A DNA stretch of 25,908 nt from positions 1-25,908 of the forward strand of contig CAMAPH010000040.1 of NCBI GenBank assembly GCA_945859975.1, written 5' to 3'. Numbering within the stretch: the first letter of the stretch is position 1; every line of letters starts with the position of its first letter. Source of the DNA: Chthonomonas calidirosea. Its GTDB lineage: Bacteria > Armatimonadota > Fimbriimonadia > Fimbriimonadales > Fimbriimonadaceae. The notes under the pieces are model-generated. The model was not told where the DNA came from and made no database searches. It saw only the letters and a program-made list of their open reading frames with translations. The translations under genes were made by a program, and so were the position numbers. Shown one piece after another: positions 1-25,829 of this stretch.

Positions 1-509
1 CCGATTTTCAAGACACGCTGAACATTGTCCGGATAAATCTCAACTCGCGCCGTAAGCGAATTTGTCCGGTCTTGAGACATCCAATCGACGCCGTTTGGCA
101 GCGAAGTTGGCTGCCAGCCATCCTCCCCGTTTCGCCAAAGCTCCAAAAACAGATCACGTGCCGGCCGCATGCTTTCAAAATTGATGGTCGCAGCTTGGCT
201 AAGAACCTGCCGCGACGCAATGGCAGCAGCCAACGTTTCGCGCGGCGAACGATACGGACTGTCCAGCAGAACTTGGGCCGAGACATCGCCAACCTCCACT
301 TCTTTTCGGAGGCTGCTACCATTTGGAAGAAGGGCTTGAACGGAGTAGGTGCCCGGTCGGAGATCCTCGACGTCCAAATACCCGGACTGAGGGATGGCGG
401 CAGTGATCGGAACTCGCTGGACCGTGCGATCCAGGTGAGTTAGAGTTACCGGCACCACCGGCTGAGGAAAACTGCTTCCTAAATCGAGCCTAATCGATAG
501 CCGGGCCAT
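1..509 (-). CDS. Hypothetical protein, third gene of the hydrolase-caspase operon; 3' end lies outside the window; beta-rich N-terminal domain (carboxypeptidase-regulatory/PEGA-like)
   Basis: Not in the ORF track. ATG at 509-507 overlaps the caspase TGA (TGATG). Manual translation is open for 169 codons to the window edge: MARLSIRLDLGSSFPQPVVPVTLTHLDRTVQRVPITAAIPQSGYLDVEDLRPGTYSVQALLPNGSSLRKEVEVGDVSAQVLLDSPYRSPRETLAAA... The 'G-Y-L-x-V-x-x-L-x-P-G-x-Y-x-V' pattern is typical of small beta-sandwich domains (inference). Confidence 0.85.
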   Translation of the reverse strand, partial: MARLSIRLDLGSSFPQPVVPVTLTHLDRTVQRVPITAAIPQSGYLDVEDLRPGTYSVQALLPNGSSLRKEVEVGDVSAQVLLDSPYRSPRETLAAAIASRQVLSQAATINFESMRPARDLFLELWRNGEDGWQPTSLPNGVDWMSQDRTNSLTARVEIYPDNVQRVLKI

Positions 510-1609
510 CAGAAATCCTCCAGAAGAAGTACAGGTGGCTTCGCGTGGCAGGATTTCCAGTCCGGGCTACCGGGACGCTGAACGTCAATTGGCCCGACCG
601 GGGCCGAGAAGGTCACCGGTTCGTCGTCGCCAACAAACCGCCCCAGCCCCTTCGCCTCAATTCCCACTTTTGGACCGGGCGAGGTGGCCTCGAAGAACAC
701 TTTTGCGAAAGCTTTTGGCTCCTTGACGTTGACGAGCGACTGTTCCCAGACCGTCTCACCTCCGACCTCAAAAATCGCGGGAAGCTTTTGTCGTCGATGT
801 GGATTTCCGACCGCCTTTACCGCGGCACCGAGCGAATCAACCGTGACTTGCCATCGGTTGCCGACCTCGGTCGCGGCGTAGTGGTTGAGACAATCGAGCA
901 AGACTTCACAGAACCGGGTCTCCGCATTCACCGTCCCCTCCGCAGTTTGATTGAGCGTCGCGGCGCGAATGACCGGCACGTTCTTGCCGCTGATCAGCAA
1001 GGGGCGCGCCGTAAGTAGGGTGCTCAATCCCTGACGCGGAATGTCCATATAAGATTTCGGCACGTTCCGGCAGGCATCCACCAGATACACCTGGGTCATC
1101 GCCTCGTTCGCCCCCATGGACCGCTTGAACTGCTCGAAGTTCACGGAGTTTCGCCAGAACTCTTCCTCAATGTCACCGAAGTCTTGGAGAAGCAGGATGC
1201 TTTCACTCGTGCTCGGGTCGGAGACGCCGTGCCCGCAGAAGTAGAAGATCGCGACGTTGTCGGCGTTCTGATTGCAAAGGTCCGACCAGGCTCTGGCGGC
1301 GGCTTTGACTTCTGCGAGAGTCGCTCCGCCGGTAACTTTCCCGGTGGGGTCGTTGCCGATTAAGAGTTGCACCGTTCCGAGCGGGACTTCAAGTCGATCT
1401 TGATTGGCAATGAACCAATCTGCCACCGCCCGAGCGGAAGGTTGTGGTGACGTCAATCGGTTCATGATTGGCGTCTCCTTGTGGTACTTCCCTTTCAATG
1501 CAGCGGGCATCGTTTCCTTGGGCTTTGGCATGAAGAAGTAGTCCCCCACGCCGATGCAGAGGACATGAACTGCCGCCGAAGCGCCAAGATCGCCGTCGAA
1601 AACAAGCAT
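509..1609 (-). CDS. Caspase-like cysteine protease (peptidase C14 family)
   Basis: N-terminal 'HVLCIGVGDY' strand; catalytic His in FYFCGHG (H127, codon 1229-1231); catalytic Cys in YLVDACR (C180, codon 1070-1072); later 'TRFCEVLLDCL' helix typical of prokaryotic C14 proteins. ATG overlaps the upstream TGA. Confidence 0.92.
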   Translation of the reverse strand: MLVFDGDLGASAAVHVLCIGVGDYFFMPKPKETMPAALKGKYHKETPIMNRLTSPQPSARAVADWFIANQDRLEVPLGTVQLLIGNDPTGKVTGGATLAEVKAAARAWSDLCNQNADNVAIFYFCGHGVSDPSTSESILLLQDFGDIEEEFWRNSVNFEQFKRSMGANEAMTQVYLVDACRNVPKSYMDIPRQGLSTLLTARPLLISGKNVPVIRAATLNQTAEGTVNAETRFCEVLLDCLNHYAATEVGNRWQVTVDSLGAAVKAVGNPHRRQKLPAIFEVGGETVWEQSLVNVKEPKAFAKVFFEATSPGPKVGIEAKGLGRFVGDDEPVTFSAPVGPIDVQRPGSPDWKSCHAKPPVLLLEDF

Positions 1610-2802
1610 CAGATGACCTTAAACTCTTGCAGACGGACCTTCAGGCGGGTGTAGTAGCTCGGCAAGCCGAAGTACAGATTGTGGGCATTGATCAACGAGC
1701 CGCCAGTGTTGAACTGGAAGTCGTGGGCTCCTTCTAGCATGGGTTCCAATCTAAATCCGAGCGGGTCGGCGAAGTCGTACGAGTTGAGCCAAACGCCGAA
1801 GTTGTTCGGCTTTGCGGTCTTTGCCGGTGGCACGACGCTCAACTTTTGTCCGTAGACATCGAGCTCCATGAAGAGGCCTACCTGGGTCCCTCCGGTGACT
1901 ACGGCATCGGCGAAGAAGCCCGCTGGCAGCAGGTCTCGGTGGTGGGTCAGGATGTCCCAGATGACCGTTCCGCCGAAGCTGTGGCCGACAAGCACCAGCT
2001 TTTCGCCGTTCTTTTGAGCTTCATTCCACGCCGCCGTAATGTCGGTCAAGGCGATTTTTGTGATCTCGTTGGGGGCGTTTGCCGCTCCACGAGAGTTGAG
2101 ATACACGAAGGCATCACCGATAAACTTCGCCGCACCAACGGTCATGGCGCTCTTTGTCTTCAGCATGAACTTGTCCGAAACGCGATCGATGACGCTGCCG
2201 ACGGCTTTCTTAAACCCATCGGAGATTTTGCTGAGAAAGTCGAAGGCACCCAGGCTCTCTTTGATCTTTTCCGTTTCCCGTTGTTGCTGGAAGGCGTTGA
2301 CTTGGGGCAATAATTCATCGATAAGTTCGGCGTCCGTGTTGACCGAGTCCAACCAAGTCCAGTCGCCTTCTTTGGCGTACTCGGACAGAATCTTGACCGC
2401 TTCCCCGTAAGATTCCTCGCTATCGTTTTCGGATTGATCCATCCCGCTCACGATGAGGTCGATCAGTTGCTCTTTTCCGCTCAGTTCGCTCCCGTCCGTC
2501 GCGGGTTTGCGAGCAATGGTCAGGAGTTGATTCCCCTTTAACCCAGACTTTGCAGAAGGGTCGCCCAGGACTTCGAGAGTTTTTTCTTCGCCCAGCGTTT
2601 CGGCACCTTCTGCGGTGGGTACGCAGGCCCCGTTGTAACGCAACCGCCCGCCGTGGTCACCCCAGTACGGATTTCGAACCTTGGCTTTGCCATCAAAGGT
2701 GATTTTCGAAAGCAGTTGAGACCGGTTCGCAACATCTCGCTCAAACGCAGTCCCATCTCCTTCCTTACGATTCGCAACTCCATGGACAAAAACAACTTGC
2801 AT
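1609..2802 (-). CDS. Alpha/beta-hydrolase (lipase/esterase-like) with a large acidic insert
   Basis: VVFVHG oxyanion motif, GHSFG nucleophile elbow, putative acid in YDFADPL and His in AHNLYF. Start placed at ATG 2802 (397 aa) because TAGAAT lies 7 nt upstream; the ORF track uses 2838. Confidence 0.88.
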   Translation of the reverse strand: MQVVFVHGVANRKEGDGTAFERDVANRSQLLSKITFDGKAKVRNPYWGDHGGRLRYNGACVPTAEGAETLGEEKTLEVLGDPSAKSGLKGNQLLTIARKPATDGSELSGKEQLIDLIVSGMDQSENDSEESYGEAVKILSEYAKEGDWTWLDSVNTDAELIDELLPQVNAFQQQRETEKIKESLGAFDFLSKISDGFKKAVGSVIDRVSDKFMLKTKSAMTVGAAKFIGDAFVYLNSRGAANAPNEITKIALTDITAAWNEAQKNGEKLVLVGHSFGGTVIWDILTHHRDLLPAGFFADAVVTGGTQVGLFMELDVYGQKLSVVPPAKTAKPNNFGVWLNSYDFADPLGFRLEPMLEGAHDFQFNTGGSLINAHNLYFGLPSYYTRLKVRLQEFKVI

Positions 2803-2809
2803 CTTCTGC

Positions 2810-2815
2810 ATTCTA
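2810..2815 (-). promoter_or_regulatory. -10 element (TAGAAT) of a probable leaderless promoter for the hydrolase-caspase operon
   Basis: Minus strand reads ggtTAGAATgcagaagATG; no Shine-Dalgarno sequence before the ATG. Confidence 0.6.
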
Positions 2816-2867
2816 ACCCGGTCGTGCTCGGATGGCAATGATTCTGCCGGGTAACTTTTCCGGAGTT

Positions 2868-20477: not shown

Positions 20478-22700
20478 ATGCCTCCGATTCGAAAGCACTG
20501 GAATCTTATCCTGTGCATTCTGCTCGGATTCATTCCCATTGCCCCGGCGCTATTCAGCGGCAGCACCATCGGAGCCTTTGACCAAATTCGGCAGATGGCA
20601 CCGTGGAACGGCGAAAAGCCAAGCGTGCCTTGGGATGTGCTTCAGGCCGATAGCGTCCTTCAGTTCTATGTCTGGCGCGACCTGGTCTTCCAAAGTTGGG
20701 GGCGGTTTGAGGTTCCGGTCTGGAATCCTTACGAGCTTGGTGGGACGCCGCTGTTGGCAAACTCTCAGTCCGGAGCGCTGTATCCGTTCCATATCCTCGT
20801 CGGGATTCTCAAAATTCCGACCGGACTCGCGATCGTTCTTTTGGCCTGGCTGCACTTGTCTCTCGCTGCTTTGGGCACGGCAAAGGCGGCGAAGGCACTT
20901 GGGGCGAACGAGTTTGGGCAGACGGTTTCGGCGGTTGGGTTCGGCACGAGCGCGTTTATGCTCGCCTGGACGGCGCTGCCGAGTGTAATCACGACCGTTT
21001 GCTGGATCCCCTGGGGCATCGCGGCGGCGTTAAGTCTTCCGAAGGATCGGCTCGACGGCTTCGCCACTCTGCGGCTGGCGGCCCCAATTGCGCTCATCCT
21101 CCTAGCTGGACATTTGCAGTTTGCGGCTTATGGTCTGGGAGCCATCGGGCTTGCTATTATTGCAAGCTTTTTCGGTCAGTCTGCCTTCACTATTGGAATG
21201 CGTGCACTGATGATCCTATCGGTTGCCCTTTTATGTAATGTATTTGCAGGCAGGCAGGTCGCGACGGTGCTCGAATACTCGCAGTTCTCGCATCGACGCG
21301 GCACTCCAACTCCAGAAGGCTACGAAGCTTACGTTTCTTCGTCGCTGAAGCCATTTCATCTCAGCGCGCTTTCGTCCCCCACCATGCTGGGAAACCCGCG
21401 AGTTGCGGGCCCCGAAGCCGCGCCGGGGATAAAGGTTTCCGAATATTGGCCGGCCATTGCCGTGCGTGGCGCTAACTACGCCGAAGGCGCGTTGACGCTG
21501 GGACCGTTGATCCTCGCCTTCCTGTTCCTTGCTAATTGGCGAGCCAAACGCACTTGGTTTGCGGCGGCATTGTGCATCGGAGCAGCCCTGATCGCGTTCG
21601 GTTCCCCGCTCAACGCTGTGCTGTACTTCAACGTGCCGGGTTGGTCCGCAACCGGTTCGCCGGGGCGCGTCATTGTGCTGTTTGTCCTCGGAGCGAGTTT
21701 GCTCGCCGGACTCGGCGCATCAAACACAGTTCAGAACTTCACGAAGAAAAGCTGGATCGGGCTCGGAGTCGTGTTGCTGTCCATCTTGCTGGTGCCGGTT
21801 CTCAATGGCACTTTCTCTCCATCGAACGTGCCCGCCGAGCTGATCAGTCAGCTAGCGGCAGCAGGCTTTATCTCTGGTGCTACCACGGCGTTACTGGGGA
21901 TTTTGCTGGTCGTCGGTTGCTTCGTGTTTCTCCAGATGTCAGATGAGAAGAAGAAAACCCACGGGGCGCTTGGCCTCGTGACCGTCTTTGGCATCGCATG
22001 GCTTCTGTCCTTCAACCCGATCATGTTTGGCAAGCCGCTCGAATCCCCCGCGCAGCCAGCCAAAACCCGGGTCGCGGTTATAAACAACGACTGGGATTTG
22101 TTGACAGCAGCACGGGCGATCCTCCCTCCCAACACGGCAACCATGCTTCGGCAACCGGAACTCGGCGGATACGACTCGCTTCTGCACCGCGACACCGTGG
22201 GGATGCTGAATGACATCAACGGCCAAGATTCGCCTCCACCGGCGAACGGCAACATGATGTTCATCAAGGACAGCTTCGACCCGAGGAAAGCAGCCGATGC
22301 GGGCGTGACCGAGGTGTGGAGCCGCAATCCGCTTGCCTCGATGACCGGCGATCCCGTTCAACGGGATGGCTACTACGTTTATAAGATTGATGGACCTGGT
22401 TTGGCCGACGTGGATGGCAAGCAGGTGGAGATCGCCGAGCTGTCGCCCTCCGGCATACGCATCGTTGCCCCGCCCGGCGGAAAGTTGACCGTCCGGTTCC
22501 GCAACATCGGTCAGTGGACCAGTAACCTTGGCGAACCGCGGAAGGACACTCGTTGGCTAGAGTACGAACTGGAGCACAACACTCCCGAGGTGTTTATTCG
22601 TCCAAAGGGATTAGAAATTGGAATTAATTTTAATAACCTTTTCTCACTCTTTTTCTTTGTTTTCTTCTTCTGGAGAAGACCGGGAGCGAAACCCGAATGA
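20478..22700 (+). CDS. YfhO-like multi-pass membrane protein (putative GT-C glycosyltransferase)
   Basis: 'PVWNPYELGGTPLLANSQSGALYPF', 'LLAGHLQF', 'GGYDSL', many TMs and a C-terminal TM anchor. Confidence 0.75.
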   Translation: MPPIRKHWNLILCILLGFIPIAPALFSGSTIGAFDQIRQMAPWNGEKPSVPWDVLQADSVLQFYVWRDLVFQSWGRFEVPVWNPYELGGTPLLANSQSGALYPFHILVGILKIPTGLAIVLLAWLHLSLAALGTAKAAKALGANEFGQTVSAVGFGTSAFMLAWTALPSVITTVCWIPWGIAAALSLPKDRLDGFATLRLAAPIALILLAGHLQFAAYGLGAIGLAIIASFFGQSAFTIGMRALMILSVALLCNVFAGRQVATVLEYSQFSHRRGTPTPEGYEAYVSSSLKPFHLSALSSPTMLGNPRVAGPEAAPGIKVSEYWPAIAVRGANYAEGALTLGPLILAFLFLANWRAKRTWFAAALCIGAALIAFGSPLNAVLYFNVPGWSATGSPGRVIVLFVLGASLLAGLGASNTVQNFTKKSWIGLGVVLLSILLVPVLNGTFSPSNVPAELISQLAAAGFISGATTALLGILLVVGCFVFLQMSDEKKKTHGALGLVTVFGIAWLLSFNPIMFGKPLESPAQPAKTRVAVINNDWDLLTAARAILPPNTATMLRQPELGGYDSLLHRDTVGMLNDINGQDSPPPANGNMMFIKDSFDPRKAADAGVTEVWSRNPLASMTGDPVQRDGYYVYKIDGPGLADVDGKQVEIAELSPSGIRIVAPPGGKLTVRFRNIGQWTSNLGEPRKDTRWLEYELEHNTPEVFIRPKGLEIGINFNNLFSLFFFVFFFWRRPGAKPE

Positions 22701-24599: not shown

Positions 24600-25829
24600 C
24601 TACAACGTCTGGTCGAGCTTAGGTAACGCCCGCCATTTCGCTTTCGCAGGAAGCGCGATGGCGGGAATCGCTCTCGCACCCGTTTGATATTGGAAGGCAA
24701 CTTTGCTTCGGCTGATCGCTCTTCCCTGCCGGTCCTTAACTTCGGATTCCAGTTGCTTGACGAGTTTGGTTGCGGAATCAATCTGGAACACGAATCGCCG
24801 TTGCGGGTTTGTGAACTCGAAGATGTTCACCTTACGACCGTCCAGCGTGAGTTCACCGACGAGGCGTCCCTGCATGTCTCCGCTCAAGTTGTAGCGGTAC
24901 GGTGCGCGGCCGTTGAGCAGTTCGCGCGCGTAGGTACTGATCGCCGTTGGCAAGAGCTCACCCAGCAGCTTCCCTACGTCGCGTCGACGAGCTCGGCCAC
25001 GGTACCAGGCAGTGCCGTTTGTGGCGACCAGATCTTTACCGTCGTACCGCCACTTTGCTTTGCCGGAGTCTTCCCCAATACTGGCGCCGTTCAAGTAGAG
25101 CTTGGTCCCATTAGTCGCCACCATCGAACCGCGCTGAAACTTCCTCTGGGCGGTTAAAAATGTGCGGACCGCATTCTCGGTGGCCAAGTCTGGAAAACGC
25201 GGGAGAGCGGGGCGTGCGATGAAAGAATCGACGCTGACGAAGCCCGCCGTTGCCGGTGCGGTTACCGATGTGGTTGCGCCATACGAGTACTGCCACTGGA
25301 TTTCCTCCGCCGCAGACCGGAAGCGCACCAGACTTGGGAGACCATCCGCTTTTCGTTGCTCAACGACAATGCCTTGCTTTTCAGTCCCTCGGGTCCAGCG
25401 GGAGGTTGAACCCACAATCTGGTTCTTCCAGCCAGATTCCTTCTTTAGGCGCGTTGCCAGGTCCTTCGCATCGGCAGGATTTGCGACGAGCCGAACGCTT
25501 TCGTCCATCGCGTTGAGGACCTTAGCTAGACGCGCAATCGGGGTGCCGCTGGACGGCGCGGTTCGACGAATGAATTCGTTGTTCAGCAGATCCATTCCCG
25601 TGAGCTTGGAGCCGACCAGGGTGTAGGTGTAGTCCGTTCGGTCTAAGGCAACGGTTCGCGGCGTAATCACCCGAAGTTGGAGGTTGCGACCGGACTGGGC
25701 GACCCGAAACTCGATCGAATCTGCGACCGTCCCGACCTTCCGGGTGGCCACGATCCTGATGGCCCGGCTGCCAAGGCGCGCCAATGCGAGTTGCATCCGA
25801 TCGAAATCTGTGTTGTAATCCGAAATCAT
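24600..25829 (-). CDS. Hypothetical basic, beta-rich protein
   Basis: 409-aa ORF abutting the S41 stop; ATG overlaps the upstream permease TGA (ATGA). No family recognised. Confidence 0.75.
   Translation of the reverse strand: MISDYNTDFDRMQLALARLGSRAIRIVATRKVGTVADSIEFRVAQSGRNLQLRVITPRTVALDRTDYTYTLVGSKLTGMDLLNNEFIRRTAPSSGTPIARLAKVLNAMDESVRLVANPADAKDLATRLKKESGWKNQIVGSTSRWTRGTEKQGIVVEQRKADGLPSLVRFRSAAEEIQWQYSYGATTSVTAPATAGFVSVDSFIARPALPRFPDLATENAVRTFLTAQRKFQRGSMVATNGTKLYLNGASIGEDSGKAKWRYDGKDLVATNGTAWYRGRARRRDVGKLLGELLPTAISTYARELLNGRAPYRYNLSGDMQGRLVGELTLDGRKVNIFEFTNPQRRFVFQIDSATKLVKQLESEVKDRQGRAISRSKVAFQYQTGARAIPAIALPAKAKWRALPKLDQTL

Follow-up and report, generated by a model that had tools for sequence, protein, structure and literature searches.

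A caspase-like protease, a Y4kD_C partner, and a lipase-like α/β-hydrolase form a putative protease-licensed effector cassette in Chthonomonas calidirosea

Introduction

Does a caspase-like protease encoded between an α/β-hydrolase and a third gene license the hydrolase as a defense or cell-death effector? The question is raised by three overlapping minus-strand genes at one end of a 25,908-nucleotide stretch of Chthonomonas calidirosea DNA (contig CAMAPH010000040.1; hereafter the window), which forms the start of contig C40 in a genome of 3.1 Mb and 101 contigs (G000). The initial annotation proposed that the hydrolase is a toxic effector cleaved by the caspase and that the third gene (gene 3) encodes the sensor or activator. 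A protease-licensed effector with a third, regulatory gene is indeed the reading that linkage, zymogen hallmarks, and predicted binding support best, but the architecture is not a new one. The caspase-partner core was described in 2025 in the caspase-nuclease system Canu, composed of CanA, CanB, and CanC (Tuck et al., Science 2025, PMC12799240), and caspase-gated hydrolases appeared in print in the same year (Evans et al. 2025, 10.1101/2025.11.14.688446).

We lean toward the view that the cassette is a protease-licensed effector built on a CanAB-type core, with an upstream lipase-like α/β-hydrolase in place of CanC, and that it most likely serves abortive-infection defense. The observations comprise gene order, linkage, conservation, and catalytic residues, together with predicted folds and a predicted caspase-partner interface. 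In the proposed mechanism, the CanA-like caspase and the CanB-like gene-3 protein, which has two immunoglobulin-like (Ig-like) β-sandwiches and a TPR-like helical domain, would form a complex. The hydrolase would be made in a latent form, kept inactive by a helical insert of about 114 aa (residues 74-187). Once the complex senses a trigger, the caspase would cut two [EQ]-x-[LF]-G loops, around L73/G74 and L187/G188, and the N- and C-terminal pieces of the hydrolase would together make up an active esterase or lipase. Cell death or arrest would follow, most likely as an abortive-infection response. For this organism, we infer the cleavage, the toxicity, the trigger, and the defense.

The caspase and its partner

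The caspase scores 25.5 bits against Pfam Peptidase_C14 (PF00656; cut-off 21.4) and matches the generic "caspase" model of PADLOC (PDLC02987, E = 2e-8). Its catalytic motifs are intact, as first annotated: the GHG His127 (codon 1229-1231) and the DAC Cys180 (codon 1070-1072) are invariant in 34 relatives. A β-rich part of about 100 aa makes up the C-terminal portion. Shortly after the catalytic His, residues 141-144 (QDFG) belong to an (E/Q)DFG segment conserved in 19 of the 34 relatives (alignment A7). By sequence, this segment resembles the proposed cut motif and may be structural or a pseudo-substrate.

Gene 3 runs off the contig, and the leftward extension suggested by the initial annotation supplies its remainder. 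At its end, contig C9 shares exactly 149 nt with the start of the window (1-149), and the joined frame encodes a protein of 454 aa; the gene is therefore intact in the genome and cut by the contig end only. The assembly break falls inside the most variable part of the gene (first 160 residues) and may reflect strain-level heterogeneity. The precomputed label PF27295.1 is attached to eight of eight listed gene-3 relatives, one of which is entered as the protein of the window itself. Membership in PF27295 rests on these labels, and the family name, Y4kD_C, comes from the protein atlas; the family is named after y4kD of plasmid pNGR234a. A local Pfam copy that lacks PF27295 and the PADLOC models both give no match to gene 3, and nothing relevant was found in the literature on PF27295 or y4kD. 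The family itself is large, with a profile search of 1.84 billion representatives returning 1681 proteins at E <= 0.001 and 756 at E <= 1e-10. No Y4kD relative appears in phage records.

The AlphaFold2 (AF2) model of gene 3 has a mean predicted local distance difference test score (pLDDT) of 69.8 and consists of two β-sandwiches followed by a helical domain. The first sandwich matches generic Ig-like, transthyretin, and CnaB β-sandwich folds only (Z 9-10), and the TPR-like matches of the helical part lie within helical-repeat noise (MalT domain III, Z 8.6). Between close genomes, the N-terminal Ig-like part is the most variable stretch of the cassette, with 62-68% identity vs 80-98%. Among 18 long Y4kD proteins examined for their C-terminal domains, five carry Trypsin_2; TPR-S, leucine carboxyl methyltransferase, pentapeptide repeats, sigma-70 region 2, adenylate cyclase, RAMA, and RNA polymerase alpha CTD also occur at that position, and pYEATS is a further C-terminal domain among family members.

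The gene-3 protein is predicted to bind the caspase. In complex prediction, the caspase and Y4kD reach a median score of 0.75 over three runs, and none of three controls exceeds 0.00. At least 68% of contacts recur between the runs, with a partner pLDDT of 76 or more. The mark applied to this score is reached by 116 of 157 solved complexes and by 2 of 215 mismatched pairs, counts that are only approximate when one's own alignments are used. In the predicted interface, the caspase loop 202-208 (TARPLLISGK), which follows Cys180, docks into partner helices 306-312 and 363-374, with further contacts adjoining His127 and Cys180. No relative of the caspase or of Y4kD was found by sequence among solved structures, so the high score is unlikely to be a memory of a known structure. 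The predicted binding also agrees with the co-purification of CanA and CanB reported by Tuck et al. (2025, PMC12799240).

Linkage of the core and exchange of the effector

The caspase and gene 3 lie together in all surveyed loci with enough flanking sequence. A metagenome scan with a Y4kD alignment (the narrower alignment A6) retrieved 62 loci, and a caspase of the same clade lies directly upstream of Y4kD on the same strand in 43 of the 43 loci with at least 1200 nt of upstream sequence. When a further 1300 nt is available, a hydrolase precedes the caspase in 9 of 37 loci. Removal of near-duplicates and a minimum length of 9 kb leave 19 non-redundant loci, all 19 with the caspase beside Y4kD. 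In 9 of these 19, a gene of about 355 aa with a metallo-β-lactamase (MBL) fold follows Y4kD directly (seven by Pfam and two more by BLASTP). The hydrolase stands upstream in four loci, an astacin/M12 peptidase in two, and a subtilase in two; the remaining two have something else as third component.

All five plasmid records with a Y4kD match also have an adjoining caspase match, and four of the five add the hydrolase in the gene order of the window: Sinorhizobium meliloti pAK76, S. fredii pNGR234a, and plasmids of Agrobacterium pusense and Rhizobium etli. On the fifth, from Bradyrhizobium barranii (NZ_CP096257.1; locus L012, 4026-10789), an M12 metallopeptidase and the caspase are followed by a long trypsin-like peptidase gene. 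This gene extends over more than 4.5 kb up to the end of the locus, and its N-terminus is the Y4kD module. A genome of another Armatimonadota family (G042) keeps all three genes in the order of the window, at 31%, 30%, and 21% identity; its hydrolase reading frame (L009, 10712-11899) is repetitive in the N-terminal part and contains a stretch of X (masked or undetermined bases), which leave the N-terminus unreadable. Co-occurrence of the three homologs, on which the original proposal depended, is thus found in part. The three-gene order is kept in G042, on four alphaproteobacterial plasmids, and in metagenome loci, but the obligate unit is the caspase with gene 3, and the hydrolase is exchangeable.

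On a quick tree of 30 caspases, the type of neighbor is clustered, requiring six changes vs a shuffled mean of 14.1, and a value as low is reached in 0 of 200 shuffles. On this midpoint-rooted tree the MBL-linked caspases form one group nested among the hydrolase-linked ones.

Three of the metagenome loci have further neighbors. At L044 (1-3463), a fused prokaryotic E2/ThiF (E1)/JAB protein and a patatin-like phospholipase adjoin the caspase/Y4kD/MBL locus. At L043 (7101-10787), a 1229-aa Sel1/TPR-CHAT protein directly after the MBL gene is a second caspase-fold protease within a caspase/Y4kD/MBL cluster. At L021 (3-3533), a 1177-aa reading frame with the C-terminal TcB-binding domain of Tc-toxin TcA lies upstream of caspase/Y4kD, and a patatin gene lies downstream.

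The hydrolase as a candidate zymogen

The hydrolase comprises 400 aa from ATG 2811 or 397 aa from ATG 2802, and the frame is open back to TTG 2838. Several Pfam α/β-hydrolase models match it, all below cut-off. The AF2 model (pLDDT 84.4) shows a minimal α/β-hydrolase core, for which Foldseek identifies Bacillus subtilis lipase A (1i6w, E = 8.8e-5) as the best match. Between the second strand and the nucleophile strand lies an all-helical insert of about 114-180 aa. The catalytic residues, already read as intact in the initial annotation, are Ser278 of GHSFGG, Asp346/Asp349, and His377; all are invariant in 24 relatives. Like the caspase, the hydrolase has no signal peptide visible by eye in its N-terminus, in line with what had been claimed for both enzymes.

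The sequence and the model together give this hydrolase the apparent hallmarks of a protease-gated zymogen, namely a helical insert and two conserved loops that carry the motif of the CanC gate sites. These [EQ]-x-[LF]-G loops flank the insert and are the two least confident loops of the model. At candidate site 1, the alignment columns of the 24 relatives read Q16/E7, a small residue, L20/F4, and G15, and the model block 71-80 has a pLDDT of 57. At candidate site 2, they read Q16/E7, a small residue, L18/F5, and G21; residues 183-187 are the only segment of the model with pLDDT below 50. Between close genomes, the insert helices between the loops diverge most (38-42% identity vs 70-90% in the core). 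Given conserved loops on either side of the insert and the low model confidence there, cuts at about 73/74 and 187/188 are proposed, which would remove a plug of about 114 aa.

A similar motif recurs in the enzymes that occupy the effector position elsewhere. All of the MBL proteins (9 of 9) carry E-x-hydrophobic-G at each of their two gate loops; that of locus L026, for instance, has two copies of EPFGA. In the first-slot genes for M12 peptidases (2 of 2) and S8 subtilases (3 of 3), E[ST]FG precedes the catalytic domain close to the N-terminus. By chance, [EQ].[LFM]G is expected 0.5 times and E[STAP]FG 0.017 times per 400 aa; several of the loci counted are kin. The patatin gene of locus L029 lacks the gate motif. 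We also considered release of the fused C-terminal domains of long Y4kD proteins at the same motif, but the motif lies near the domain junction in only 1 of 18 (P0204), which gives the idea no support.

Organization of the locus

The three open reading frames occupy positions 3-2838 (Table 1). The arrangement of the initial annotation, three minus-strand genes joined by TGATG overlaps, is borne out by the list of reading frames and by reading of the junctions, at each of which a single base is common to stop and start.

Table 1. Features of the cassette in window coordinates
Feature	Positions	Strand	Basis
α/β-hydrolase, lipase-like	1609..2811	-	Open reading frame; weak Pfam matches; AF2 model; Foldseek; invariant catalytic residues
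Caspase-like C14 protease, CanA-like, 366 aa	509..1609	-	Pfam PF00656; PADLOC PDLC02987; invariant H127/C180
Gene 3, first 169 codons, Y4kD_C/CanB-like partner	3..509	-	Open reading frame running off the contig; completed on C9
TGATG stop/start overlap, hydrolase-caspase	1607..1611	-	TGA 1611-1609 and ATG 1609-1607
TGATG stop/start overlap, caspase-gene 3	507..511	-	TGA 511-509 and ATG 509-507
Sigma-70-like promoter site, TTGCCA-17-TAGAAT	2810..2838	-	Consensus match, 10/12
Nucleophile Ser278 codon (GHSFGG)	1978..1980	-	Sequence reading; invariant in 24 relatives
Candidate caspase gate site 1, E71-T72-L73-G74	2590..2601	-	Conserved columns; low-confidence loop
Candidate caspase gate site 2, E185-S186-L187-G188	2248..2259	-	Conserved columns; lowest-confidence segment

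The single leaderless promoter that had been proposed fares less clearly. One sigma-70-like site is present, with a -10 box that overlaps the hydrolase ATG at 2811 and sits 7 nt before the ATG at 2802, but the number of sites found in the promoter scan (1) is no better than the 0.8 expected by chance. A leaderless start at ATG 2802 is plausible by sequence because of this spacing and because the N-termini of hydrolase relatives read M-x-V-V-F-V-H-G. For the divergent TIM-barrel gene, ATG 2868 is the most likely start, matching G036 (265 aa). About 56 nt separate the divergent start codons (2812-2867), and both transcripts would therefore have very short leaders or none.

Genomic context, distribution, and allele exchange

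Downstream of gene 3, contig C9 encodes a PSCyt/PSD protein, a DUF1552 protein, and UvrB, and these genes also follow gene 3 in G036 and G014. The opposite strand upstream of the cassette encodes a xylose-isomerase-like TIM barrel, an aldo-keto reductase, a TetR regulator, and a short-chain dehydrogenase. Housekeeping genes also occupy the remainder of the window (DeaD, MgtE, TilS, FtsH, and an S41 peptidase). Two long reading frames, at 20478-22700 (+, 740 aa) and 24600-25829 (-, 409 aa), have no Pfam match at E <= 1e-5. On plasmids, the cassettes adjoin genes for AbiEii, an integrase, a restriction enzyme, RES, and RelE.

Within the Armatimonadota, 3 of 301 sampled genomes contain a match to the Y4kD profile, and the scan of genome contigs with the gene-3 alignment matched two close relatives only. 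Among 36 other genomes of a broadly drawn "genus", the caspase query finds a strong match in two (G014 and G036). This distribution looks patchy, but the genus is broad, and G014 and G036 are the sole close relatives and are both carriers. G008 and G019, next in relatedness, have nothing but the TIM-barrel gene in common with this locus and show no synteny, and comparison with an "empty site" is uninformative.

Within this trio the cassette and its flanks tell different histories. Between G000 and G014, synonymous divergence (dS) in the flanks is 0.16-0.27, and the aldo-keto reductase, TetR, DUF1552, and UvrB proteins are 99-100% identical; in the cassette, dS is 1.5-1.6, with 67% identity for the hydrolase, 82% for the caspase, and 78% for the partner. 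Between G000 and G036, hydrolase and caspase are 94% identical, and the flanks have a dS of about 1.1. The ratio of nonsynonymous to synonymous divergence (dN/dS) is 0.03-0.16 throughout. Together with the contrast in dS, this indicates that the genes are under purifying selection and that the locus has exchanged alleles. Allele exchange at the cassette locus is evident.

Alternative explanations

Several results weigh against the licensed-effector reading. With housekeeping neighbors in the window and in its flanks, the locus is not a defense island, and the PADLOC run recommended in the initial annotation called no system: the generic caspase model was the only one matched, with none for the hydrolase or gene 3. 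Overall dN/dS is low and, taken over whole genes, gives no hint of positive selection. The motif [EQ].[LFM]G is short, with half a chance occurrence per 400 aa, and its conservation could be structural, since the caspase itself carries the similar (E/Q)DFG in 19 of 34 relatives. R-G cut sites of the type used by LcHydrolase, the caspase-cleaved α/β-hydrolase described by Evans et al., are not conserved among the hydrolase relatives; R241-G242 is present in the window hydrolase, but not family-wide. The hydrolase is upstream in only 4 of the 19 non-redundant loci. A downstream MBL nuclease corresponding to CanC is missing, with no Lactamase_B match after gene 3 in G000/C9, G036, or G014. Finally, the apparent likeness to the Klebsiella aerogenes proteins KaeCanA, KaeCanB, and KaeCanC rests on a reading by eye against consensus lines.

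Three other explanations accommodate parts of these data. It is unlikely, though the interface gives the idea some force, that the core works as described while the gene-3 protein serves the caspase as an obligate chaperone, inhibitor, or scaffold (for example, through a clamp on the loop after the catalytic Cys) and not a sensor, the trigger being sensed elsewhere or by the C-terminal domain of the caspase. The predicted docking of loop 202-208 into the Y4kD helices, with contacts near His127 and Cys180, suits such a role, and so does the purification of CanA only together with CanB (Tuck et al. 2025), which fits a stabilizing subunit. Yet a recognition surface would be expected to vary as the N-terminal Ig-like part of Y4kD does, and family members with sensor-type C-terminal domains (TPR-S, RAMA, pentapeptide repeats, and pYEATS) also favor a sensor. 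We think it quite unlikely that the cassette is not antiviral at all and performs regulated proteolysis or lipolysis for the cell's own physiology, be it stress-induced death, membrane remodeling, or development. Its place among housekeeping genes with synteny kept in three genomes, the absence of a PADLOC system call, the ordinary genes that flank most metagenome loci, and the account of Evans et al., which in the parts consulted contains no phage defense for the hydrolase module, can all be read in this way. Such a physiological role is hard to square with the rarity of the cassette in the phylum (3 of 301 genomes), its presence on conjugative plasmids beside toxin-antitoxin, Abi, and restriction genes, the allele replacement evident at the locus, and the protection against T4 conferred by the homologous-looking CanABC (Tuck et al. 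2025).

A last alternative, which we regard as improbable, is that the hydrolase is not a substrate of the caspase, and that the two enzymes are co-expressed and act in parallel on another target, with the conserved loops being structural. The shortness of the motif and its presence inside the caspase leave room for this. Against it stands the recurrence of the motif, beside inserts or near the N-terminus, in four enzyme folds of the neighboring slot that are unrelated to one another, together with the loss of defense on mutation of the motif glycines of KaeCanC (Tuck et al. 2025) and the clustering of neighbor types on the caspase tree (6 vs 14.1 changes; 0/200 shuffles). A protease-licensed hydrolase on a CanAB-type core stays our preferred reading.

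Implications

If this reading is right, Canu would belong, as a single branch, to a far larger family (1681 representative clusters matched by the partner profile at E <= 0.001) with a constant core and an exchangeable killing enzyme. It would also provide a concrete cleavage code, with named residues, for a lipase-type death effector. G000 and G014, near-identical genomes with diverged cassettes, would be a natural allele pair suited to mapping recognition by the partner. No new category is opened, given that the core and the gated hydrolases were both in print by 2025.

A bolder generalization is possible, although we consider it doubtful. The caspase with its Y4kD/CanB partner may be a plug-and-play licensing hub, and the E-x-hydrophobic-G code may have been gained independently by at least four folds (MBL nuclease, α/β-hydrolase, astacin-type metallopeptidase, and subtilase), any of which could stay inactive until this one protease frees it. 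The invader would then be recognized directly by the N-terminal Ig-like domain of the partner, which changes fast. The hydrolase-linked form may even predate the published nuclease form, because MBL-linked caspases are nested within hydrolase-linked ones on the quick, midpoint-rooted tree.

Comparison with known systems

Johnson et al. are said to have described, in 2022, a bacterial gasdermin with a neighboring caspase-like protease. As proposed here, cleavage by a protease of the caspase family switches on a neighboring death effector in that system, but no gasdermin is present in the cassette, and its effector is an enzyme and not a pore former. CATRA systems are likewise caspase-dependent, with a TPR-type partner and a variable effector position. 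Membership in CATRA was considered and dropped: the CATRA-N, CATRA-C, and CATASP models (PF20269, PF20270, and PF20271) have 0 matches in G000, although the control genomes are also silent, and the CATRA models match none of 35 Y4kD relatives at E <= 1 and none of the three proteins of the window. The trypsin-MBL pairs of Hachiman, AVAST, and Lamassu (Tuck et al. 2025; Evans et al. 2025) share the principle of a protease that licenses a gated pro-enzyme by cleavage at two sites. There, the protease is of the serine type and forms a fusion with a known sensor such as a STAND ATPase or HamA, whereas the present cassette has a cysteine protease and a separate Ig-like/TPR-like partner.

The closest precedent for the effector is that of Evans et al. 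(10.1101/2025.11.14.688446), whose caspase and α/β-hydrolase pairs confirm the suspicion in the initial annotation that such pairs might not be new. LcCaspase of Lysobacter capsici AZ78 cuts a neighboring α/β-hydrolase (LcHydrolase) at Arg73 and Arg117 (R-G), and the N and C fragments are toxic together. Both modules pair a lipase-like α/β-hydrolase with an adjoining stand-alone caspase. In LcHydrolase, two cuts open the zymogen and remove a middle fragment, with the first cut at residue 73, the position proposed here. The differences lie in the cut motif (R-G vs [EQ]-x-[LF]-G, with Leu/Phe before the glycine), in the length of the middle fragment (44 aa vs about 114 aa), and in the position of the catalytic Cys (129 in LcCaspase vs 180). 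A third partner gene is not mentioned for the LcCaspase module in the parts consulted.

The core finds its counterpart in Canu (Tuck et al. 2025, PMC12799240), and the gene arrangement that the initial annotation did not recognize is, in the form caspase, CanB, and nuclease, already in print. CanA is a caspase with a C-terminal Ig-like fold and can be purified only together with CanB. CanB, of unassigned function, co-purifies with CanA and is soluble only in that complex. CanC, encoded downstream, is an MBL pro-nuclease activated by the CanAB complex. KaeCanABC from Klebsiella aerogenes defends against T4, and protection is lost on mutation of the caspase, the nuclease, or the gate glycines (G104 and G189).

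The apparent likeness to Canu extends over several levels. The caspase, about 380-390 aa long and with an apparent β domain at its C-terminus, precedes a partner of about 350-450 aa that co-purifies with it in Canu and is predicted to bind it here. The effector is latent in Canu and putatively so here, with two gated loops that carry E-x-hydrophobic-G (LEGLG104A and LESMG189A in KaeCanC). Nine of the 19 non-redundant Y4kD loci are exactly caspase/Y4kD/MBL. By eye, KaeCanA contains THAL.IGV..Y.HL, GLGQL, GHG, LLL.DF, and D.CR of the clade consensus; KaeCanB contains PG.Y.V, K..DP..A, WLPD, and TE..LL.D.L of the Y4kD consensus; and KaeCanC is plainly like the MBL proteins of the metagenome loci. 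A partner directly after the caspase, which characterizes Canu, is seen here in the 43/43 adjacency and the predicted complex (0.75). The two gating insertions with a conserved glycine have a counterpart by analogy in a different fold (G74 in 15/24 and G188 in 21/24 relatives).

The cassette is nevertheless not a caspase-nuclease in the strict sense, because its effector is an upstream α/β-hydrolase and it lacks an MBL nuclease. The partner is also longer (454 aa vs 347 aa in KaeCanB), and the organism belongs to the Armatimonadota. Relative to the literature consulted, the linkage of a CanAB-type core to an α/β-hydrolase is new. The same holds for the apparent resemblance of the Y4kD_C family to CanB, judged by eye, and for the cut-site-like motif that seems to be common to four effector folds.

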